Shown: positions 47,138 through 59,544 of the stretch, in pieces | Position numbering within the stretch: position 1 is the stretch's first letter | Layout: every line of letters starts with the position of its first letter | Source: an archaeon | GTDB lineage: Archaea; Nanobdellota; Nanobdellia; Woesearchaeales; UBA9642 | Length of the DNA stretch: 64,000 bases | NCBI GenBank assembly: GCA_020057295.1 | Contig: JAGVGF010000006.1 | Coordinates: forward strand, 32,001 to 96,000 | Direction of reading: 5' to 3' | The notes under the pieces: model-generated | The model's input: only the letters and a program-made list of their open reading frames with translations | Databases searched by the model: none | What the model was told of the DNA's origin: nothing | Translations under genes and position numbers: made by a program

Positions 47138-49318
47138 ATGGGAGAAAAAATGGTTGATCGCGTTATGCGAATCATGAACAAGCCTGACTTTATTAGAAAT
47201 ATTGCCACATGTGCACATATTGATCACGGTAAGACAACATTCTCAGATAACTTACTTTTTGGTGCTGGTATGATGTCACAAGAACTTGCTGGAAAAGCAT
47301 GTGTTCTAGATTTTCACGAAGATGAGAAGGCTAGAGGAATCACAATCGATGCAGCAAACGTTTCAATGGTACACGAGTGTGAAGGAGAAGAATATCTAAT
47401 TAATTTAATTGATACTCCTGGACACGTAGATTTCGGTGGAGACGTAACAAGAGCAATGAGAGCAGTAGATGGTGCAATAGTATTATGTTGCGCTGTTGAA
47501 GGAATCATGCCACAAACAGAGACAGTATTGAAACAAGCATTAAGAGAGCGAGTTAAACCGATATTATTCATCAATAAAGTTGACAGATTAATTAAGGAAG
47601 TAAAATTAACTCCTGAAGCAATGCAAGAAAGATTCATGAAGATTATTAATCATGTAAATAAATTAATTATAGATATTAGTCCAGACATGGGACCAAAATG
47701 GCAAGTAAATGTACTTGATGGTTCAGTATGTTTTGGTTCAGCATTTCATAATTGGGCAATGAGTGTTCCTTACATGAAAAAGAAAGGATTAACATTCAAA
47801 ACAATAATTGAAGCATATGATAACGATAGTTGGAAAGAATTAAAGAATATAGCACCTTTACATGAAGTAATTCTAGATGCTGTAATTCAACATCATCCAA
47901 GCCCGGTAAAGTCTCAAGTATATAGAATACCAAAGATATGGCATGGAGAAGTAGATAGTACAATTGGACAATCATTAATGCATGCAGATCCAAAAGGACC
48001 ATTAGCATTTGTTGTGACAAAGATGACTATAGATCCTCAAGCAGGAGAAATATGTGCAGGAAGAGTATTCAGTGGAACTGTACGTAGGGGAGAAACTGTC
48101 AGATTAAACAGAGCAAAAACAGATGTACGTATACAGCAAGTATTCATTTACAATGGAGCAAAAAGAGAAATAGTAGACAATGTTCCAGTAGGAAACATCA
48201 TTGGAATTGCAGGTTTAAGAGGAGCATATCCTGGAGAAACTGTTTCATTTGGTGAAATGGATACATTCGAAGCAATCACACACATTTTCGAACCAGTAAT
48301 GACTAAAGCAATCGAAGCAAAGAAGGCATCAGACTTACCAAAATTAGTAGAAGTATTAATACAAGTCTCTAAAGAAGATCCTTCAATAGTAATTCAGATT
48401 AATCAAGAAACTGGAGAACACTTAATGTCTGGTATGGGAGAATTACACCTTGAAATTATAGAAAATAGAATCAGAACAGAAAAAGGAGTAGATATTCAAT
48501 CCTCACCACCAATTGTAGTATATAGAGAGACAATTACAAAGAATAGTCCGGGATCATTTGAAGGAAAATCTCCAAACAAACACAACAAGTTCTACTTTAC
48601 TGTTGAACCATTGAGTCAAGAATTAAGAGATTCAATAAAAGCTGGAAAGATTCCAACTGGAAGAGTAAAGAAGAATATGCAAGATTTATGGGCAGAACTT
48701 GAAGCCGCAGGAATGGAAACTAAAGAATCAAGAAAAGTTAGAGATGTATACAATGGAAACTTATTAGTAGATGGTACAAGAGGAATTGTACACATTGGTG
48801 AAGTAATTGAAATGGTTTCTGATATGTTTGAGGATGTAATGATGAAAGGACCTCTTGCAAAAGAACCATGCATCGGTGTAAAAGTAATTTTAGATGATGT
48901 AAAACTTCACGAAGATGCAATTCACAGAGGACCAGCACAAGTATACCCAGCAGTAAGAGAGGGTATAAGGGGTGCGATGATGCAGGCAAATCCATTAATG
49001 TTTGAGCCAACTCAAGTATTACAATTTGATGCACCGGTAGAATTTATGGGAGAAATCTCAAAGTTAATCAGCAGCAAGAGAGGACAATTATTAGACATGC
49101 AACAGGAAGGAGCACATATTGCAGTAAAAGGAAAATTGCCTGTTGGAGAGATGTTTGGACTTTCATCTGATTTAAGATCCGCTACTGAAGGACGAGGAAA
49201 CTTCTTCGTATTAGACCAGACATTCGAGAAATTACCTGAAGAATTACAAGGTAAAATAATCAATAACATAAGAAGCAGAAAAGGTCTAAAAGGCGGCGAA
49301 GAAGAGCAATCTGAATAA
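47138..49318 (+). CDS. fusA: Elongation factor aEF-2
   Basis: AHIDHGKTT, DTPGHVDF, NKVD, diphthamide motif DAIHRGPAQ. Confidence 0.98.
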   Translation: MGEKMVDRVMRIMNKPDFIRNIATCAHIDHGKTTFSDNLLFGAGMMSQELAGKACVLDFHEDEKARGITIDAANVSMVHECEGEEYLINLIDTPGHVDFGGDVTRAMRAVDGAIVLCCAVEGIMPQTETVLKQALRERVKPILFINKVDRLIKEVKLTPEAMQERFMKIINHVNKLIIDISPDMGPKWQVNVLDGSVCFGSAFHNWAMSVPYMKKKGLTFKTIIEAYDNDSWKELKNIAPLHEVILDAVIQHHPSPVKSQVYRIPKIWHGEVDSTIGQSLMHADPKGPLAFVVTKMTIDPQAGEICAGRVFSGTVRRGETVRLNRAKTDVRIQQVFIYNGAKREIVDNVPVGNIIGIAGLRGAYPGETVSFGEMDTFEAITHIFEPVMTKAIEAKKASDLPKLVEVLIQVSKEDPSIVIQINQETGEHLMSGMGELHLEIIENRIRTEKGVDIQSSPPIVVYRETITKNSPGSFEGKSPNKHNKFYFTVEPLSQELRDSIKAGKIPTGRVKKNMQDLWAELEAAGMETKESRKVRDVYNGNLLVDGTRGIVHIGEVIEMVSDMFEDVMMKGPLAKEPCIGVKVILDDVKLHEDAIHRGPAQVYPAVREGIRGAMMQANPLMFEPTQVLQFDAPVEFMGEISKLISSKRGQLLDMQQEGAHIAVKGKLPVGEMFGLSSDLRSATEGRGNFFVLDQTFEKLPEELQGKIINNIRSRKGLKGGEEEQSE

Positions 49319-49404
49319 ATATTTATTATTTTTTCTTTTATTATTTTATTATTCAACTTATTTCTAAACAACAACTATTTAAATAATCATTCTTATCGTA
49401 AGCT

Positions 49405-49713
49405 ATGACTTTCATCATTATATATGTTACACATAAGAATTTGAAAGAAGCAAAAAAGATAAGCTCGCATCTTCTTAAGAAAAGACTCATAGCATGCGTG
49501 AATTTCTTTCCAATAGAAAGTAATTATTGGTGGAATAATAAAATAACTAATTCAAAAGAGATTATCTCATTGTTGAAGACTAAGAAAGAAAATTGGTTGA
49601 AAGTAAAGTCAGAAGTTAAGAAAATTCATCCATACACAACTCCATGCATTATGAAGTTTGACGTTGAAGCAAATGATGATTATGAGAAATGGATTAATAA
49701 AGAAATAACATAA
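49405..49713 (+). CDS. cutA: Divalent-cation tolerance protein CutA
   Basis: RLIACVN, SNYWW, IHPYTTPCI. Confidence 0.9.
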   Translation: MTFIIIYVTHKNLKEAKKISSHLLKKRLIACVNFFPIESNYWWNNKITNSKEIISLLKTKKENWLKVKSEVKKIHPYTTPCIMKFDVEANDDYEKWINKEIT

Positions 49714-49892
49714 AATTCATTGCCAATCTATCACTTTCTAATGGAAAATATCCTCTAGGTATCTTTAATATATTCTCCTATACAAAAGCAAAATATTTAT
49801 AAAGGAACTAAAATTCCTAGTATCATCCCGTTGTTGGGGTAATTATTTAAAATAAAGTTATATTTAGCTTACAATATTAGGAGGAATGTAAA

Positions 49893-51203
49893 ATGGCAAA
49901 GAATAAGGAACATATAAATCTTGTATTCGTAGGTCACGTAGATCACGGAAAATCAACTACTGTAGGTAGATTATTATACGATTCTGGTAATGTAGACGAA
50001 CAAGCAATGAGAAAATTAAAGGATAAGGCTCAAGAATTAGGAAAGGGCGGATTCGAATTTGCATTCGTTATGGATAATTTAAAGGAAGAACAAGAGAGAG
50101 GAGTTACAATTGACTTATCTCACAAGAAGTTCGAAACTGATAAATATTTCTTCACAATAATCGATGCTCCTGGACACAAGGACTTCGTTAAGAATATGAT
50201 TACTGGTGCATCCCAAGCAGATGCTGCAGTTTTAGTATGTGGTGCAAACGAGATTAAGGGAACTGAAGGAGTTACAGAATTACCACCACAAACAGTTGAA
50301 CACGCAAGATTAACAAAAATCTTAGGCGTAGGACAATTAATAGTTGCTGTAAATAAAATGGATATGCAGGGTTACTCACAAGAAAGATTTGAAGGAGTAA
50401 AGAAAGCAATCACAGCATTACTAAAGACTTCCGGTTGGAAAGTTGAAAATGTACAGTTTATAGCTATTGCATCATTACCTGGAGAAAATATTGTAAAAAA
50501 ATCCGATAAGATGCCATGGTATACTGGACCAACATTATTAGAAGCAATTAACAATTTAGCTGTTCCACAGAAACCAACTGATTTACCATTGAGATTACCA
50601 ATCCAAGATGTATATAACATCACAGGTATTGGTGTAGTCCCAGTAGGTAGAGTTGAAACTGGTGTAATTAAGGTTAACGATAAGGTTGTAGCAGTTCCAG
50701 GAAGAGAAGGTAAAGGAGTTCCTGGAGATGTAAAGACTGTCGAGATGCATCACGAGCAGATGCCAGAAGCAGGTCCTGGTGACAATGTCGGATTATCAAT
50801 CAGAGGATTTGGTAAGAAAGATGTTGCAAGAGGAGATGTTATTGGTCATGCTACTGATGTTCCAACTGTAGCAACAGAATTCACAGCACAGATTGTTGTT
50901 TTAAATCATCCAAGTGTAATAACTGTAGGTTATACTCCAGTATTTCACATACATACAGCACAGGTTGCATGTACAGTTTTGGAGATTGTTAAACAATTAA
51001 ATCCTATGACTGGTGAAACATTGAAGGAGCATCCAGACTTTATCAAGAATGGAGACGCAGCAATTGTAAAGTTCAAGCCAGTACAACCATTAGTAATTGA
51101 AACTCACAAGACAATACCACAAATGTCAAGATTTGCAATCAGAGATTCTGGTTCAACAGTAGCAGCTGGTATGTGTATTGAAGTTGTCAAGAAACAAATG
51201 TAA
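49893..51203 (+). CDS. tuf: Elongation factor aEF-1alpha
   Basis: [24 protein letters not shown]. Confidence 0.98.
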
Positions 51204-51270
51204 ATATTATTTTTATAATTTTTTTATTATTATGATATGATGAACTAACTGTTCACCATTGGAGTAAACA

Positions 51271-51582
51271 ATGCAGAAGGCAAGAATCAAATTAGCAAGC
51301 ACCGACATCAATAAGATTAATCAGACATGTGAGTATATCAAAGATGTCGCTTCAAAGACTGGCGTAGTAATTAAAGGACCAATACCTCTTCCTACTAAAA
51401 AGTTAAAGATAACTACTAGAAAAGGTCCATGCGGTAACGGTACAGCAACTTGGGACAGATTTGAAATGCGAGTTCATAAAAGATTAATTGACTTAGGCAT
51501 TGATGAAAGAGCATTGAGATTAGTCATGAAGGTTCCAATTCCAGAAGGATTGAACATTGAAATCGAAATGATTGATGAATAA
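51271..51582 (+). CDS. rps10: 30S ribosomal protein uS10
   Basis: [24 protein letters not shown]. Confidence 0.97.
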
Positions 51583-52118: not shown

Positions 52119-52209
52119 AATATTAAATTAGTATCATAATTTATAACTTTTTTGTTAATTGCTTTGCTTTTAGTAAACTTTATTAATATCTTCGATGAGT
52201 TTTATGTTT

Positions 52210-52953
52210 ATGTCTGATTCGATAAAAGTGGTGAGCTTTAATATAGAGTATTGTGCGTCTATAACTCAAGGTTATTGGGAATATGCTTTTTCTTGGTGGA
52301 AATATATTATACCGCATAATATTAATGCTATATGGAAAATTTCTGAATTAATTAATAAAGATGATATTGATATAGCCACATTCACAGAGATTGATGGTGG
52401 AAGTTATAGAACTAAGCATAAGAATTATCTTAATATAATGTCTCAACTAACTAATCTTAAGAGAAATACATTTTTCCCAGTACACAGTCTTGGTAAATTA
52501 TTTAATCAAGGTAATGGGATATTAACAAAATACGATTTGATAGAAGCTAAAAATATTAAGCTAGAGACTAATGGAGAAAATAGATATTTAAGCGTTAGTA
52601 AATTAAAATTCGGCGATACAGAAGTTAACGTGATGACTACACAATTAGCTTTAGGACACATTAGCAGAGTAAAAGAATTAAGACATATTGTTAGAATAAT
52701 TAATGAAACTCCTGGACTAGTAATATTTACGGGAGACTTGAATACACATAACGAAAAAGAATTAGATATATTAAAAGAGACTAGATTAAAAAGGATAGAA
52801 ACACCGCAAACATTTCCATCATGGGCCCCTAAAAAAAGGTTAGATTATGTATTTTACAGTCCTGAATTTGAGGTAGTAAATAGTTACGTTCTAGAAGAGT
52901 TAAAAATCTCAGATCATTTACCGATAGTTGCAGAATTTAAAATAAAAAAATAA
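52210..52953 (+). CDS. Endonuclease/exonuclease/phosphatase (EEP) family protein
   Basis: SFNI, TE, GDLN, TFPS, LDYVF, SDHLP. Confidence 0.9.
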   Translation: MSDSIKVVSFNIEYCASITQGYWEYAFSWWKYIIPHNINAIWKISELINKDDIDIATFTEIDGGSYRTKHKNYLNIMSQLTNLKRNTFFPVHSLGKLFNQGNGILTKYDLIEAKNIKLETNGENRYLSVSKLKFGDTEVNVMTTQLALGHISRVKELRHIVRIINETPGLVIFTGDLNTHNEKELDILKETRLKRIETPQTFPSWAPKKRLDYVFYSPEFEVVNSYVLEELKISDHLPIVAEFKIKK

Positions 52954-52963
52954 AGTAAAATAA

Positions 52964-54076
52964 TTATCTCACGCTAGTATATCCGCCCTTAATACCTTTC
53001 TTTGAGAATACTATCTGATATAATTGTATATTTCTACATCTAAACGAACCAGCGCAACTTAAAAGATAGTATCGCCACATACGATAAAATCTATCATCAT
53101 ATATCGGTTTTGTTCCTTTTAGTTCATGCCATGTTCTTTCAAAGTTTGCATGCCATCCCATCAATGTTTTATCATAATCAGCACCAAAATTGTGCCAGTC
53201 TTCAAGAGTAAAAAGTCCTTCAGCTGCTGCTGTAAGCTGTTTTGCTGATGGCAACATCGAATTAGGGAATATATACTTAGCAGTCCACGGTTCTGTAACA
53301 ACTACAGACTTATTTCCGGCAATAGTATGCAATAAGAATAATCCATGATCCTTCAAACATTTGTTTGCAAGCTCCATAAATGCTCGATAGTTCTTGTAAC
53401 CTATATGTTCACATAATCCTACAGATACTATACGATCAAACTGTCCGTGAGCTTCACGATAATCTGCTTCTATGAACGTTACAGGTAAACCTTTACACCA
53501 TTCTCTAGAATAAGCAATCTGTTCTTTACTAATATTGTAACTTACAACTTCACAACCGTATTCTTTTGCCATGAATCTTGCAAGTCCTCCGAATCCTCCT
53601 CCTAATTCAAGAACTCTCATTCCTTTTTTTAACTGAAGTTTTTCACATACTAATCTTAATTTTGCAACTTGTGCTTGATCTAATGTTTTTGCATTCTTCC
53701 AATATCCACAAGTGTACTGCATATTTTTGTCAAGCATTCTTGTGTACAATTCGTTTCCTAAATCGTAATGTTCCTGTGCTACAACTTTAGATTTAGATTT
53801 TGTTTGTTGATTAAACAATAACGATTTTATTGCTCCAGCCACAATTATTGTTTTTGAAACATGTTTATCTAATTCAGCATCTAATACTTTGTAGAAGAAT
53901 TGGTCTAAATCTTTTACATCCCACCAACCGTCCATATATGCTTCTCCAAGTCCTAAAGTACCTTGTGACAAAATTCTAGAGTATAAATTAGGATTATGTA
54001 CATGTATGTCCCACGTATTAGGACCATCAATTACGACTCCTGCATGATTCAACAATTTCTGTATTTTTTCTTTCAT
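52964..54076 (-). CDS. cfa: Cfa-family fatty-acyl-phospholipid methyltransferase (cyclopropane synthase or TmpB/TmsB-type methylase)
   Basis: LGLGEAYMDGWW, EHYDLGNELY, MQYTCGYW, VLELGGGFG, YIFPN, FYRMWRYYL; start MKEKIQ after gaggt. Confidence 0.92.
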   Translation of the reverse strand: MKEKIQKLLNHAGVVIDGPNTWDIHVHNPNLYSRILSQGTLGLGEAYMDGWWDVKDLDQFFYKVLDAELDKHVSKTIIVAGAIKSLLFNQQTKSKSKVVAQEHYDLGNELYTRMLDKNMQYTCGYWKNAKTLDQAQVAKLRLVCEKLQLKKGMRVLELGGGFGGLARFMAKEYGCEVVSYNISKEQIAYSREWCKGLPVTFIEADYREAHGQFDRIVSVGLCEHIGYKNYRAFMELANKCLKDHGLFLLHTIAGNKSVVVTEPWTAKYIFPNSMLPSAKQLTAAAEGLFTLEDWHNFGADYDKTLMGWHANFERTWHELKGTKPIYDDRFYRMWRYYLLSCAGSFRCRNIQLYQIVFSKKGIKGGYTSVR

Positions 54077-54144
54077 AATAAATACCTCGCATTTATTTTT
54101 TATATTTTTATTTCTTATATTTTGAATAATATCTGAGTTCAGAG

Positions 54145-55491
54145 TTATTTTCTCAAAACACATTTATCATACAAATTTTTAAATCTGTAATTAGCATCAT
54201 ATTTTTTCTTTAGTTTATCGTAAGTCTTTTTATTATATAACTCCCAAAATTTTTTCTCATCGTAATACGCTGTTGAATATAAAGATTTTTTTCCGCGGAG
54301 TTTCTCTACGATAAATTCTACTTTCTTGTTTAAGTATCCGTCTTCTTTACCTGTTTTTACTACATCCCAGAATCCAAAATTAATATATAATATTTCTGGT
54401 TTCATCACGTATAAATCGTATTTCGCTTTACCGTTAAGCGGTTGTGTTGGGCACATCCATACAGGAGCTATTCCTATCTCTTTTTGAAAAAAATCCAAAA
54501 ATTCTGGAGCGTTTGCTATAGGAATTTCTACATCTTGTATAACTGATTCTTTTTTTATTCCAAAAAATGCATCTATCTTTTCTAATATTTTAGTTTTTCC
54601 TGCAAATGCACGTATTTTCCAATAAGTTGTAGATTTCAAAAATTTCTTACCAACTAAAAATCTTACAATTTTATTTTGCACTCCAAAACTTGATGAACAC
54701 CAGAACCAGTCAGTATCCCATCTCCAGATATAATCTTTTATTGTTAAATAATCAGTAGTTTTTGTTTTTATCGATTTATAATAGATATTCATATAAGTAT
54801 AATCACTAACATAAGGAGCAGAGCTAACGCATTCTCCAATAGTTAGATACATTTCATTTTCACTAAATATAGATCCATCTACAAATGTCAAATCTTTTGA
54901 TTTTCTATATTTTTTACAATTAGAATTCACAGCATCAAAATAAGATTTAGAATTATCATATTTAGTGTGTGTTAACTTCACGTAAGGAAGTGTTTTTACA
55001 AGTTTGACTTTTAATCTTAATACATATCCAAATGTTCCGTAAGAGTTCGGAAATCCATAAAATAAATCTTTATATTTATTAGTTCTAGTGCATACGACTA
55101 TTCTTCCATCGCCAAGTAATAGTTCTAATTCTTCTATTGTTTCATGAACTAAGCCGTATTTGAATGATGAAGATTCAATCCCTCCACCAGTTGTTGCTCC
55201 TCCAATAGTTATGGATTTTAATTGTGGAACGACAGTCGGCATTAAACTATATTTTAGTGTCTCTTCTACTAATTCTTCGTACGTTGTCATTCCTTCTACA
55301 TCTGCTATAAGATTTTTTGAGTCAATATTAAGAACGTGATTAAAATTTTTTACATTAATCTTTTTTGCATTAACATCTCTGTGCCTAAACAGATTTGAAG
55401 TATCTTTCTGGAGAACAACTGCACCATCAATTGATTTAAATTCTTCTAATAGAATACGTTTACGTTCTTCAAAACCCCCATAACTATCCAT
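54145..55491 (-). CDS. FAD-binding oxidoreductase (VAO/DHCR24 superfamily), TmsA/TmpA/BfaA(Rv3719)-like
   Basis: TSNLFR, VVPQLKSITIGGA..GIESSSF, GFPNSYGT, WRWDTDWFWCS, QDVEIP, KSLYS; start at 55491. Confidence 0.88.
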   Translation of the reverse strand: MDSYGGFEERKRILLEEFKSIDGAVVLQKDTSNLFRHRDVNAKKINVKNFNHVLNIDSKNLIADVEGMTTYEELVEETLKYSLMPTVVPQLKSITIGGATTGGGIESSSFKYGLVHETIEELELLLGDGRIVVCTRTNKYKDLFYGFPNSYGTFGYVLRLKVKLVKTLPYVKLTHTKYDNSKSYFDAVNSNCKKYRKSKDLTFVDGSIFSENEMYLTIGECVSSAPYVSDYTYMNIYYKSIKTKTTDYLTIKDYIWRWDTDWFWCSSSFGVQNKIVRFLVGKKFLKSTTYWKIRAFAGKTKILEKIDAFFGIKKESVIQDVEIPIANAPEFLDFFQKEIGIAPVWMCPTQPLNGKAKYDLYVMKPEILYINFGFWDVVKTGKEDGYLNKKVEFIVEKLRGKKSLYSTAYYDEKKFWELYNKKTYDKLKKKYDANYRFKNLYDKCVLRK

Positions 55492-55542
55492 GAAATTATC
55501 AATAATAATGCTTTTAAAAAGGTTGCTAAAATGAAAGTATAA

Positions 55543-55667
55543 CGCCGACGCCCAGATTTGAACTGGGAAACCTTTCGGAAATGGTTCTTTTGGGCGAAAG
55601 ACCAAAAGTTTCGAAATAGCATTTCGCCATTCGAGACCATCGCAGTACCAGATTGTGCCACGCCGGC
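55543..55667 (-). tRNA. tRNA-Ser(CGA) with 43-nt intron (55587-55629) at position 37/38
   Basis: GCCGGCG acceptor, D/V/T arms identical to Ser(TGA) copy, ATGGT-CT-CGA-A[intron]A-ACCAT. Confidence 0.9.
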
Positions 55668-55758
55668 ATAGTATATGAGATAGATAACATCTTATAAATT
55701 TTCTCGAAAAATATATAAAACAGCATTGGTTTCAAAAAGTATACTTGGAGGATTAAGA

Positions 55759-56001
55759 ATGGATGATATAGAACCTTACGATCACTTAAGAACAATATTA
55801 AGAGCAGAAGGATTCATGGCAGAAATATATAGAAGTACTAAAGGAATATATTTAGGAATACCTGTAGAGCAAATAGCTCAAGATAAAAATAAACAAAGCA
55901 TGGTTAAAGAAGCAATGGATAGAATTGCTGATGATTTAGGATTACATCCAGAAACTCATATATGTCAACACAGAATACAAATAAAATATTCTTTACTATA
56001 A
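55759..56001 (+). CDS. Hypothetical protein
   Basis: ggagg SD then MDDIEPY; 80 aa. Confidence 0.65.
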   Translation: MDDIEPYDHLRTILRAEGFMAEIYRSTKGIYLGIPVEQIAQDKNKQSMVKEAMDRIADDLGLHPETHICQHRIQIKYSLL

Positions 56002-56059
56002 ATATGCGGCAGCTAGAACATATCGATAATTTTTTATAGACATAATATTCTCTAAATGT

Positions 56060-56735: not shown

Positions 56736-57953
56736 TTATTTCTTATAAGCTGCTTCTAGTATTCTGGAATAGTTTCTACTAATAAAATTAGAAAGATGCA
56801 ATAACGCTTCTCCGCCAATACCTGCTGTATTCAATCTTGATGTTCCATTTTCAGTTATCATAAATTGATTTACGAAGTGTCCAGATCCATCAGTTAGCCA
56901 TCTAATTGAATCATCAGTTGTTTTTTTATCTGCTTCCTTTCCACCTAGGAACATCTTTTTTGAACCATCACCATAGGTTTTTATTTCTATTCCAGCATCT
57001 GCAATTCTATTTTTTGGAAGAGATACATCTAAATGTTGTAATCCAATCTGTGGATTAAGGTGTCCGTCAACCCATTTTAGCACAACATCTATTTTTTCTC
57101 CATAAACACCTATTGCAAGATATTTTGCAGTTATTGATTTGCCATCAGTACTAATTCTTGCACGAATACGGCTCTGATCTGAACCAGATTTTAATTTTAC
57201 AATAGTTTCTCTACGACCATAAGTATCGTTATCAATATATGCTTCAGAATCTAAGATTTTTTCTAATGCATCTAAATTTAATTCTGATGAAGGATAATAA
57301 GCTCCAACATATCCTGTGAAAAAATGGAATAAAGGATACTCTCTTAAAATTGCAGCCTTTGAAGATGCATCTATTAAAGCATAAGCAAACACAGGATCTC
57401 CTACGGATAGATTTAATGGAATAGTATTTCCAATTGCGGCAGATTGTGTATGATTTTTGACAAGATGTGCAGCTTCTATATATTTTTCTTTAAATGTTTC
57501 TGTTACATCTACTTTAGCAATACTGTGTTTTAGTTGTTCAAAAAATTCTTGTGGAAGAAATCTTAACGGATAGCTTAAGCCGTATGCTTCTATAGCTGCT
57601 CTCTCAACAAGAAATTGTGATATATCTGGATGTAAGCTATCTAAATGTTGTTCAAATTTTCTAAGATTACCCATTCCTTCAAGTACAATGTCAGCTCTAG
57701 GGAAACTAAACTGTGATTCTGCTATATGATATATTTCTGCAAATGTTATAAGCTTTTTTCTTAATACATCCACACTTCCATTCATTATTTTAGCAGCATT
57801 TCCATTCATAGAACCAGATTCTAGCATATGGTCTATTCCTTTAAAACGTGTATCTTTATAGAAATCTACGGATTTTTTTAATATAGCACCAGCTACTTGT
57901 GTATCTCTTTGAAACTGTTCAAGATTCTTTAATAGTGTACTATTGTCGACCAT
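56736..57953 (-). CDS. Hypothetical protein
   Basis: 405-aa ORF, ggggt SD-like element, no recognised motif. Confidence 0.75.
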   Translation of the reverse strand: MVDNSTLLKNLEQFQRDTQVAGAILKKSVDFYKDTRFKGIDHMLESGSMNGNAAKIMNGSVDVLRKKLITFAEIYHIAESQFSFPRADIVLEGMGNLRKFEQHLDSLHPDISQFLVERAAIEAYGLSYPLRFLPQEFFEQLKHSIAKVDVTETFKEKYIEAAHLVKNHTQSAAIGNTIPLNLSVGDPVFAYALIDASSKAAILREYPLFHFFTGYVGAYYPSSELNLDALEKILDSEAYIDNDTYGRRETIVKLKSGSDQSRIRARISTDGKSITAKYLAIGVYGEKIDVVLKWVDGHLNPQIGLQHLDVSLPKNRIADAGIEIKTYGDGSKKMFLGGKEADKKTTDDSIRWLTDGSGHFVNQFMITENGTSRLNTAGIGGEALLHLSNFISRNYSRILEAAYKK

Positions 57954-58029: not shown

Positions 58030-58398
58030 CTACAAACCTTCACGAAGAACTTCAAAATCAGAATAATCTTGCAACAATTCATCTCCTTTTTTTATATCTG
58101 TTTTGGCAAATATTTTTCCAAAAGATTTTGCATAAATATTAGGATTCTTAGAATGATTACAGAATCTAATATCGTCATGCGATAAATGCCACATATTCTT
58201 GTTTTTATCTAAATAACCATAGTGTTTAAAGAATTCTTTATACTTATCCGTAAGAATGTCAAATTCTTTTACAGAAAGCCATACATCAAGATCATGATTA
58301 GGAGTATAAACCAATTCTCCCTTAGAAATATCTTCATTAGCAAATACACCAGCGCCATGAATCCTACTCTTTCCAACCTTAATCTCTACGTGAAACAT
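58030..58398 (-). CDS. SET-domain protein
   Basis: SRIHGAGVFA, RFCNHSKNPN, IKKGDELLQDY. Confidence 0.9.
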   Translation of the reverse strand: MFHVEIKVGKSRIHGAGVFANEDISKGELVYTPNHDLDVWLSVKEFDILTDKYKEFFKHYGYLDKNKNMWHLSHDDIRFCNHSKNPNIYAKSFGKIFAKTDIKKGDELLQDYSDFEVLREGL

Positions 58399-58827: not shown

Positions 58828-59544
58828 TTATTTTTTGGCAATGTTCCACAGCAATTCAAAATATGTTTTGAATGAATTGGACACAGATTTGCTCGTTATT
58901 AACGTAGCCATTGGCGTCTCTCCCCAACTTAATATGGCAACTTTTTTGCCATAAATAATCATTGTTATCGGTATTGAATACGAATCAGGCAAATATTTGA
59001 TTTCGGCATATGCTACTTTCCTTAAATCATCTTTTTGTTTTGTTGATTCAGTCGGTATTACCTTTGATTTAATATCCAATTCCTTTTTTCTGTTCTGAAA
59101 AGCAATAAAATCGTGTTTCATTATTTCCATAAATTTTCCCGAAGAGCCATATGCTATGTATTCTTTATACAGCAAAATATCATTAAGTATGGATTTTATT
59201 CCTTTTTTTCCAACATATGTTTGGGATTCTTCTACTTGTTTGGTAGAATTGTATAATCCAGAAAGTTCCGGCAATATCTCATTTGCGGCTTCTTCTTTTT
59301 CCTTTATCTGATTAAGGAATATTTTTGGGTCTGTCGCTCTGAATATTTTTCTATTTGCAGATATAGCATAACTTATCACGCCTTTTTCAATCAATCTTTC
59401 TGTCGCGTCATATGTCGCAGGTCTGTTTATTTGCGCCTTCTTGCTTAATTTACCAACTTGTGCATCTCCTATTTCTAATAACGAGACATATATTCTCGCC
59501 TCGTTTTTTGTGAGTCCTAATTTTTCTAGTTTTTCGCTTATCAT
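58828..59544 (-). CDS. TrmB-family transcription regulator
   Basis: LGLTKNEARIYVSLL...YDATERLIEKG; C-terminal effector domain FKTYFELLW. Confidence 0.9.
   Translation of the reverse strand: MISEKLEKLGLTKNEARIYVSLLEIGDAQVGKLSKKAQINRPATYDATERLIEKGVISYAISANRKIFRATDPKIFLNQIKEKEEAANEILPELSGLYNSTKQVEESQTYVGKKGIKSILNDILLYKEYIAYGSSGKFMEIMKHDFIAFQNRKKELDIKSKVIPTESTKQKDDLRKVAYAEIKYLPDSYSIPITMIIYGKKVAILSWGETPMATLITSKSVSNSFKTYFELLWNIAKK

Follow-up and report, generated by a model that had tools for sequence, protein, structure and literature searches.

A Bacterial-Type Pair of a BfaA-Family Reductase and an Escherichia coli-Type Cfa Methyltransferase in a Woesearchaeota-Type Archaeon

A two-gene cassette of bacterial origin is present in the genome of a Woesearchaeota-type DPANN archaeon. 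It encodes a predicted flavin adenine dinucleotide (FAD)-dependent reductase and, behind it, a predicted S-adenosylmethionine (SAM)-dependent methyltransferase of the cyclopropane fatty acid synthase (Cfa) type. The two genes lie 53 to 55 kb into the window, by which we mean the whole stretch of 64,000 nucleotides that was analyzed and whose numbering is used here. The window comprises bases 32001 to 96000 of the 243,751-bp contig JAGVGF010000006.1 and so starts 32 kb into it; the genome consists of 6 contigs totaling 1.20 Mb and is scored at 100% completeness and 0.46% contamination. Public homologs from the organism and its relatives are named as Woesearchaeota or Nanoarchaeota. The cassette and the gene upstream of it are as follows.

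55542..55668, minus strand: tRNA-Ser(CGA) gene with a 43-nt intron, directly upstream of the cassette (ARAGORN with introns allowed)
54145..55491, minus strand: gene for a predicted BfaA-family FAD-dependent reductase of 448 amino acids, first gene of the cassette (PF01565 domain, identity to BfaA, placement in the clade)
52964..54076, minus strand: gene for a predicted E. coli-Cfa-type SAM methyltransferase of 370 amino acids, reductase-linked subclade (NF008686, match to PDB entry 6bqc, tree)

On the minus strand the tRNA gene is followed after 50 nt by the ATG of the reductase gene, and a spacer of 68 nt separates the reductase gene from the methylase gene. The original prediction had described an FAD oxidoreductase with the motifs WRWDTDWFWCS, QDVEIP, and KSLYS, a Cfa-type SAM methyltransferase in the same orientation behind it, and a position of the pair directly 3' of tRNA-Ser(CGA). 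All of this was borne out: the coordinates of the oxidoreductase were exact, its motifs were located at amino acids 256, 319, and 402, both genes proved to be on the minus strand, and the tRNA gene was recovered where it had been placed.

The host of the cassette is archaeal. Genes for the archaeal translation proteins aEF-2 (TIGR00490, 1016.6 bits), EF-1alpha (TIGR00483, 650.2 bits), and the eukaryotic/archaeal form of uS10 (TIGR01046, 137.7 bits) stand at 47138 to 51582, only 1.4 kb from the cassette. The G+C content at third codon positions (GC3) is 0.235 and 0.194 in the two cassette genes and 0.14 to 0.23 in the neighboring genes. A groundwater metagenome (one DNA run; 0.18 of sampled words) contributed short contigs from a related strain. 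One of them, 841 nt long, bridges the end of the methylase gene and that of the EEP-family (endonuclease/exonuclease/phosphatase) gene next to it, and a second joins the 5' end of the reductase gene to the HPRT side. Other DPANN genomes of high quality also carry the pair on long contigs, e.g., of 350,984 bp and 130,764 bp. Chimeric assembly, a concern raised with the original prediction, was rejected on the basis of the position deep in the contig, the archaeal flanks, the GC3 values, and the groundwater-strain contigs that run over the junctions.

Both reading frames are intact, and the cassette is under purifying selection, with a composition that matches that of its host. The proportions of nonsynonymous and synonymous differences (pN and pS) were 0.19 and 0.80 against genome G177 and 0.23 and 0.73 against genome G339 for the reductase, and 0.11 and 0.87 and 0.18 and 0.77, respectively, for the methylase, with synonymous sites saturated in all of these comparisons. 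Among the 40 differences listed (of 221) between the window and the groundwater strain, 29 fall inside the two genes. Third codon positions account for 24 of these 29 (methylase, 15 of 17; reductase, 9 of 12). The genes appear to be in use.

Family membership of the two enzymes

In the tuberculostearic pathway of actinomycetes, as the relevant passages of two papers describe it, BfaB methylates a delta-9 acyl chain to the 10-methylene form, which BfaA reduces with NADPH, and an engineered BfaA/BfaB fusion increased the conversion (PMC7791843, PMC5660069); Tms is given there as the earlier name of Bfa (PMC7791843).

The window reductase begins with an FAD_binding_4 (PCMH-type) domain (PF01565, 54.9 bits; cutoff, 26.4). 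In an alignment with 93 relatives, WRWDTDWFWCS and K.LYS emerged as family-wide signatures, and the protein keeps 90 of the 90 columns that are conserved in at least 95% of these relatives. A tblastn search of plasmid-collection records returned 6 matches, 4 of them in actinomycetes. The Tsukamurella record, evidently a piece of chromosome, carries recR, ybaB, an amidase of the "Rv3717 family," an SRPBCC gene, an FAD-binding oxidoreductase, a SAM methyltransferase, and dnaX. As this matches what we take to be the order from Rv3715c to Rv3721c in mycobacteria, the Tsukamurella oxidoreductase and methyltransferase would be the orthologs of BfaA and BfaB, and this pair is the closest syntenic reference to the window reductase. 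Identity to actinobacterial BfaA is 41% for Tsukamurella (over 99% of the length), 42% for Nocardia, and 48% for Nonomuraea, and a Variovorax homolog is 45% identical, the BfaA and Variovorax comparisons covering 92 to 99% of the reductase; the BfaA proteins of different actinomycete orders differ among themselves by about 50%. In a reductase tree of 102 rows (quick IQ-TREE run, LG+G4), the methylase-linked reductases, that of the window included, formed one clade of 94 rows (Shimodaira-Hasegawa approximate likelihood ratio test [SH-aLRT], 99), within which actinobacterial BfaA was monophyletic (99), and eight DPANN paralogs with 31 to 35% identity to the window reductase fell outside it. To judge by sequence, the window reductase is a true member of the BfaA family.

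A second, more distant family of BfaA/DHCR24-like FAD_binding_4 proteins, 31 to 38% identical, was also encountered in DPANN (L011 to L018) and in Patescibacteria (L157 to L162). No methylase is located near 7 of the 8 DPANN copies or near 5 of the 6 patescibacterial ones; L157 has a 35%-identical methylase match alongside, and the DPANN copy L014 is surrounded by PIN, DUF7670, and GDT1 genes.

The methylase carries a CMAS domain (PF02353, 255.4 bits), scores 557.4 bits against the "cyclopropane fatty acyl phospholipid synthase" equivalog NF008686 (cutoff, 400), and matches PDB entry 6bqc with 416 bits. It is 51% identical to Cfa of E. coli K-12, 30 to 34% identical to three BfaB orthologs, and 31% identical to the Variovorax methylase. 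A tree of 104 methylases resolved three clades (SH-aLRT of 99 to 100 each), namely, actinobacterial BfaB, a Variovorax/betaproteobacterial type, and an E. coli type; BfaB formed a clade of its own with 37 rows (SH-aLRT, 100), and the window methylase lay inside the E. coli-type clade. A more careful tree of 58 rows (LG+G4 with no mixture model) placed it in a 25-row clade (ultrafast bootstrap, 98; SH-aLRT, 98) composed of 12 bacterial and 9 DPANN methylases linked to a reductase and 4 unlinked DPANN methylases. This mostly reductase-linked subclade spans Acidobacteriota, Nitrospirota, Gammaproteobacteria, Verrucomicrobiota, and DPANN, and within it the window methylase belongs to a 9-row clade with Acidobacteriota, as the sister of theirs (100/98). 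E. coli Cfa grouped elsewhere, with 17 unlinked DPANN methylases. "Linked" methylases do not make up a single clade, because two from Patescibacteria and four others (L065, L082, L116, and L140) fell outside both groups. One of the 21 unlinked DPANN methylase rows, G395, is flagged as unpublished, and no claim made here depends on it.

The five positions C139, E239, H266, I268, and Y317, which we take to be the bicarbonate ligands of E. coli Cfa, are kept in the window methylase. They are kept equally in all four clades, BfaB and the Variovorax type included, and their use to tell cyclopropane from methylene formation was rejected for this reason. Five differences are fixed between the linked and the stand-alone methylase clade (G116A, D173E, I174L, T197N, and A112S), of which G116A and T197N are common to the linked clade and the Variovorax type; position 116 of BfaB is Ile. 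Both the identities and the trees indicate that the methylase is of the E. coli Cfa type and not of the BfaB type.

With BfaA/BfaB, the window pair shares the two-gene logic, the reductase family, and an adjoining methylase of the Cfa superfamily. It differs in the clade of its methylase, in its archaeal host without the fatty acid and phospholipid synthesis families searched, and in having no counterpart of the SRPBCC/polyketide cyclase gene that stands upstream in actinobacterial loci. The likeness to E. coli Cfa extends to the two-domain length and the five ligand positions, but the E. coli cfa gene has no reductase neighbor, and the window methylase sits in its separate subclade with the fixed changes G116A, D173E, I174L, and T197N. 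The 10-methyl-palmitate operon TmpB/TmpA of Marinobacter and Thiohalospira also has a Cfa-like, 10-methylene-forming methylase followed by a flavoprotein gene, but TmpA is described as a flavoprotein resembling geranylgeranyl reductase and sharing "no meaningful protein homology" with BfaA (PMC7791843), unlike the FAD_binding_4 protein of the window. The true nearest relatives are pairs of an E. coli-type Cfa and a BfaA-like reductase in Acidobacteriota, Nitrospirota, Gammaproteobacteria, Verrucomicrobiota, and Patescibacteria, in which the genes are adjacent in the same way and the methylases are 48 to 59% and the reductases 47 to 58% identical to those of the window; their hosts are bacteria and, Patescibacteria excepted, have genomes of several megabases.

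The Bfa/Tms/Tmp-type module of the original prediction stands as far as its reductase goes, which is 41 to 48% identical to BfaA and falls inside the methylase-linked BfaA clade. It does not stand for the methylase, which is outside the BfaB clade, and the locus is not of the Tmp type. The conversion that had been proposed, to 10-methylene and then to 10-methyl chains, gains support from the orthology of the reductase to BfaA; the 10-methylene label derives from the partner gene and not from the methylase family, because the methylase is not of the BfaB/TmsB type.

Linkage and spread of the cassette

Of 580 bacterial reductase relatives found, the best 80 were surveyed for coupling of the two genes, counting methylases within 3 kb of each locus. 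A methylase of the Cfa superfamily was present at 71 of these 80 loci. It was of the BfaB type in 35, all from Actinomycetota, and of the Variovorax type in 17, all from Pseudomonadota; the 19 E. coli-type partners came from Acidobacteriota (6), Nitrospirota (3), Pseudomonadota (3), Verrucomicrobiota (1), Saccharimonadota (1), and unassigned organisms (5). The 9 loci free of a methylase comprised 8 from Pseudomonadota and 1 from Nitrospirota that ends at a contig end. Five natural fusion proteins that unite PF02353 and PF01565 were found among public proteins, in the order methylase-reductase for the Variovorax type and reductase-methylase for the BfaB type; none of these public fusion proteins was of the E. 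coli type, which is weak evidence. A predicted complex of the window reductase and methylase (two alignments, run without controls) had a score of 0.00 and a mark of 0.32, and nothing is drawn from it.

The sample of the host phylum comprised 401 genomes, that of the window included. A reductase match at an E value of 1e-30 or less was found in 17 of them, and in 10 of these 17 the identity was at least 41%. All 10 have the methylase adjacent, in either gene order, with 2 of the 10 split over contig ends. The expectation that the pair would recur in other DPANN genomes was thereby confirmed. Methylase matches were more numerous (43 of 401 genomes, 41 of them with at least 47% identity). Among the 9 other genomes of the same genus, the reductase occurs in 1 and a methylase in 4; the methylase is of the linked type in G177 and of the stand-alone type in G334 and G296. 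The pair is retained in relatives, as had been anticipated, but the retention is patchy, with the 10 of 401 genomes of the phylum set beside 1 of 9 in the genus. At seven other DPANN loci, the reductase and methylase genes overlap by 1 to 4 nt in four cases, and no third conserved gene within the 6-kb flanks is common to the seven; the EEP-family and NUDIX genes next to the pair in the window are therefore considered to be outside the cassette.

A sample of 401 Patescibacteria (its center genome included) gave reductase matches in 12 genomes, 6 of which were at least 51% identical, and a methylase adjoined the reductase in all 6. The pair thus moves horizontally as a small, self-contained cassette that is common to bacteria, the candidate phyla radiation (CPR), and DPANN. 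In one contig of a Saccharibacteria metagenome-assembled genome (L061), the reductase gene lies between two E. coli-type methylase genes. The methylase encoded downstream falls with the stand-alone clade; the other, upstream and truncated at the contig end, shares 61% identity with the window methylase.

Host lipid capacity and possible activities of the pair

The whole genome was searched with ten Pfam families for lipid synthesis, each validated on 14 named control genomes (10 bacteria and 4 archaea). It had no match to PF01884 (PcrB/geranylgeranylglyceryl phosphate [GGGP] synthase), PF01864 (CarS), PF02660 (PlsY), PF00109 (ketoacyl synthase), PF01066 (CDP-alcohol phosphatidyltransferase), PF00501 (AMP-binding/acyl-activating enzymes), or PF01148 (CdsA). 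There was one match each to UbiA, polyprenyl synthase, and a PlsC-type acyltransferase, the prenyl enzymes resembling a geranylgeranyl diphosphate (GGPP) synthase and a prenyltransferase (UbiA). On the ten families searched, the cell appears unable to synthesize phospholipids de novo, whether archaeal or bacterial; archaeal phospholipids are included here because neither a GGGP synthase nor a CDP-archaeol synthase was found. The original prediction, which noted that many DPANN lack lipid synthesis, agrees with the lack of these seven core families. The PlsC-type family matched in the ten control bacteria and in 0 of the 4 control archaea. Its match in the host is a 350-amino-acid protein with a weak acyltransferase domain, followed by a PIG-L family deacetylase (G000:C6:25170-26943; L148:1671-3444).

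The substrate of the pair would be an unsaturated acyl phospholipid acquired from a bacterial partner or from the surroundings. Uptake is proposed because the genome is without the fatty acid synthase, acyl-activating, CDP-diglyceride, CDP-archaeol, and GGGP steps among the families searched. The methylase, a putative soluble and membrane-peripheral enzyme of the Cfa family, would use SAM to methylate a phospholipid already in the membrane, at the cis double bond in one of its unsaturated acyl chains. Its product would be an olefin (exomethylene or allylic methyl-olefin), formed in place of a cyclopropane or alongside it. In the next step, the FAD enzyme of the BfaA type would reduce this olefin with NAD(P)H, leaving a saturated methyl branch in mid-chain (10- or 11-methyl). 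The logic, in which SAM serves to methylate a double bond and an FAD enzyme can act on the olefinic methyl product, is also that of sterol C24-methyltransferase with DHCR24/DWF1 and of UfaM in the synthesis of furan fatty acids in Rhodobacter; the substrates in those systems differ from those of the window pair, and the sequence relation is remote or none.

We hold it probable that the pair makes mid-chain methyl branches on scavenged acyl phospholipids, although the product cannot be read from the sequence. Three findings favor this Bfa-like activity over plain cyclopropanation: the reductase is orthologous to BfaA, it is almost always linked to a methylase, across three methylase clades, and linked methylases of the E. 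coli type have a separate clade. We infer the chemical product, the substrate, and the location of the modified lipids in the archaeon's own membrane. The findings suggest that the archaeon lives on and tailors borrowed bacterial-type lipids. A wider proposal, which we advance tentatively and would not yet back, is that this Woesearchaeota-type archaeon, together with about 2% of its phylum and some Patescibacteria, may build its membrane at least in part from bacterial ester phospholipids, which it is unable to synthesize, tailored in place to saturated chains with mid-chain methyl branches by a third, uncharacterized form of the tuberculostearic acid pathway (E. coli-type Cfa plus BfaA).

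Several observations weigh against methyl branching as the activity of the pair. The methylase resembles a true cyclopropane synthase, E. coli Cfa, and scores above the equivalog cutoff, the comparison of the methylase clades yielded no residue that discriminates a cyclopropane former from a methylene former, and the differences fixed between linked and stand-alone clades lie mainly in SAM-binding motifs. For eight gammaproteobacterial BfaA-like reductases (L062, L072, L080, L093, L095, L106, L108, and L132), the 3-kb surroundings contain no methylase of the Cfa family, so a methylase partner is not obligatory for the reductase; the neighbors of L080 are TPR and DUF2860 proteins, and no lipid-related Pfam families were found among the neighbors of L080 or of the distant DPANN paralog L014. 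The reverse case is seen in four DPANN genomes (G089, G147, G150, and G181), which keep a linked-clade methylase and have no reductase at an E value of 1e-30 or less, so that such a methylase can serve on its own. As for the host, the genome search covered only ten Pfam families, and the one PlsC-type match is weak (30.5 bits against a Pfam cutoff of 23; 30.9 bits against 103 for TIGR00530). We know of no DPANN cell in which an acyl lipid has been shown, and no experimental test of an E. coli-type pair was found in the literature searched. Nitrospira, whose family carries the E. coli-type pair (L066, L109, and L114), makes 11-methyl-hexadecanoic acid according to the passage concerned (PMC5516240), and the support that this lends to methyl branching is circumstantial.

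The score and the 51% identity would suit a methylase that is the cyclopropane fatty-acyl phospholipid synthase of its annotation, next to an FAD enzyme with another lipid role (e.g., on a side product) or an unrelated one. The retention of every bicarbonate-ligand position and the four DPANN genomes without the reductase point in the same direction. We nevertheless judge this explanation unlikely. The bicarbonate residues are kept equally in BfaB and provide no argument for cyclopropanation, and the reductase is orthologous to BfaA, whose sole shown activity is to reduce the methylene product of a Cfa-like methylase. The two genes adjoin each other across three separate methylase clades and are joined in fusion proteins, and the clade of linked E. 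coli-type methylases is its own, apart from E. coli Cfa.

Two further explanations fare worse. Action of the pair on unsaturated isoprenoid (archaeal) chains, which the original prediction had offered as an option, is modeled on sterol C24-methyltransferase followed by a FAD reductase of the DHCR24/DWF1 type. BfaA-like enzymes are distantly related to such eukaryotic proteins (the eukaryotic protein P0247 is 31% identical), and the host keeps a GGPP synthase-like gene and a UbiA prenyltransferase. However, both proteins are 50 to 60% identical to those of bacteria with acyl lipids (Acidobacteriota, Nitrospirota, Gammaproteobacteria, and Patescibacteria), the reductase retains every family-conserved column, no GGGP synthase or CDP-archaeol synthase was found in the genome, and Cfa-type enzymes are known to act on cis-disubstituted acyl double bonds and not on trisubstituted isoprenoid ones; the option gained no support and seems to us very improbable. 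It is harder still to credit that the pair is a recent neutral or decaying horizontal acquisition without a role, or a bacterial fragment misjoined in assembly or binning. The patchy spread, both in the genus (1 of 9 other genomes with the reductase) and in the phylum (17 of 401), would fit such a history, as would bacterial relatives that equal the DPANN ones in closeness. Yet the pair is deep in a long contig of a complete and scarcely contaminated genome, between archaeal translation genes and an intron-bearing tRNA gene, with the GC3 of its neighbors; strain contigs support the EEP-methylase junction and the link from the reductase to the HPRT side, the frames are intact with pN far below pS, and other DPANN genomes of high quality have the pair on long contigs too.

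A 2024 report presented cfa genes in five Woesearchaeota metagenome-assembled genomes as a novelty for archaea (PMC10936187), a 2025 paper took them as a hint that DPANN modify the lipids of bacterial hosts (PMC11868695), and bacterial fatty acid genes in Woesearchaeota have also been noted (PMC8204110). The first two reports concern the same kind of organism, the same methylase family, and the same idea of modifying bacterial-type lipids as the present work, but the passages concerned make no mention of a reductase partner, of two Cfa lineages, or of a methyl-branched product. Among the literature matches listed, from a collection without most subscription journals, none described a BfaA partner for archaea or CPR, and we likewise found no earlier report of the pairing of this reductase with Cfa in DPANN. 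The "undescribed membrane strategy" of the original prediction holds only in part; Woesearchaeota cfa genes and the idea that DPANN modify bacterial-host lipids were already in print (PMC10936187, PMC11868695). The cassette is less surprising than had been judged, its host being unexpected but already known to have cfa genes.

The membrane composition of DPANN archaea and CPR bacteria without lipid synthesis is a standing question, and the cassette gives a concrete genetic handle on it. The sole known substrates of such a pair are membrane-bound unsaturated acyl phospholipids, and here the pair is kept under selection in an archaeon without the core lipid synthesis families searched. It predicts acyl, methyl-branched lipids in these archaeal cells and provides two expressible, assayable genes. 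In the survey, partners of the BfaA reductase came from three methylase clades, and pairs of the E. coli type proved to be widespread among Nitrospirota, Acidobacteriota, and Gammaproteobacteria. This is relevant to how 10- and 11-methyl fatty acids serve as biomarkers and also to annotation, since many genes named "cyclopropane synthase" may make no cyclopropanes. If the archaeon does tailor its membrane in this way, fatty acids of the 10- and 11-methyl kind from groundwater and sediments would not be markers of free-living bacteria only, and the E. coli-type cassette would be the source of the 11-methyl-16:0 of Nitrospira.

Local signals and neighboring genes

Three candidate signals accompany the cassette.

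55512..55520, minus strand: TATA-box-like TTTTTAAAA, a candidate archaeal promoter 20 nt 5' of the reductase ATG
54084..54088, minus strand: GAGGT, a Shine-Dalgarno-like candidate 7 nt 5' of the methylase ATG at 54076
52939..52963, minus strand: T-rich tract, a possible archaeal terminator directly 3' of the methylase stop codon and overlapping the end of the convergent EEP-family gene

The promoter assignment follows what we take to be the archaeal TATA consensus. The reductase frame extends to a TTG start at 55605 (open reading frame [ORF] 54145..55605, minus strand), but this longer frame enters the tRNA gene, and the start is therefore placed at the ATG at 55491; the public gene call (P0001) likewise has 448 amino acids. 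The methylase ORF spans 52964..54163 on the minus strand, and an alternative in-frame ATG at 54163 would give a protein of 399 amino acids and a 19-nt overlap with the reductase gene. The public gene call (P0121) starts at the ATG at 54076 and has 370 amino acids, a start that is supported by the GAGGT 7 nt upstream.

The tRNA-Ser(CGA) gene was found only by intron-aware ARAGORN and was missed by ARAGORN at its default settings and by an Rfam scan; other intron-bearing tRNAs of the genome may likewise escape default ARAGORN and the Rfam gathering threshold. Its position raised the possibility of a tRNA-targeted integrative element, which was rejected, as the flanks of the cassette contain no directly repeated copy of the tRNA end.

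The EEP-family protein convergent to the methylase (52195 to 52953, plus strand) has a weak PRK05421-type match (54 bits), and its gene is not kept beside the pair in other DPANN loci. On the other side, a 91-amino-acid ORF at 55726 to 56001 (plus strand), between the tRNA and HPRT genes, shows only a faint CyaB/CYTH-like match (16.3 bits); it may be absent from the related groundwater strain, since one contig of that strain joins 55660 to 56019. Adjoining the HPRT gene is a 405-amino-acid protein at 56736 to 57953 (minus strand) with no Pfam or NCBIfam match. Farther on, the window encodes a SET-domain protein at 58030 to 58398 and a TrmB regulator at 58828 to 59544.

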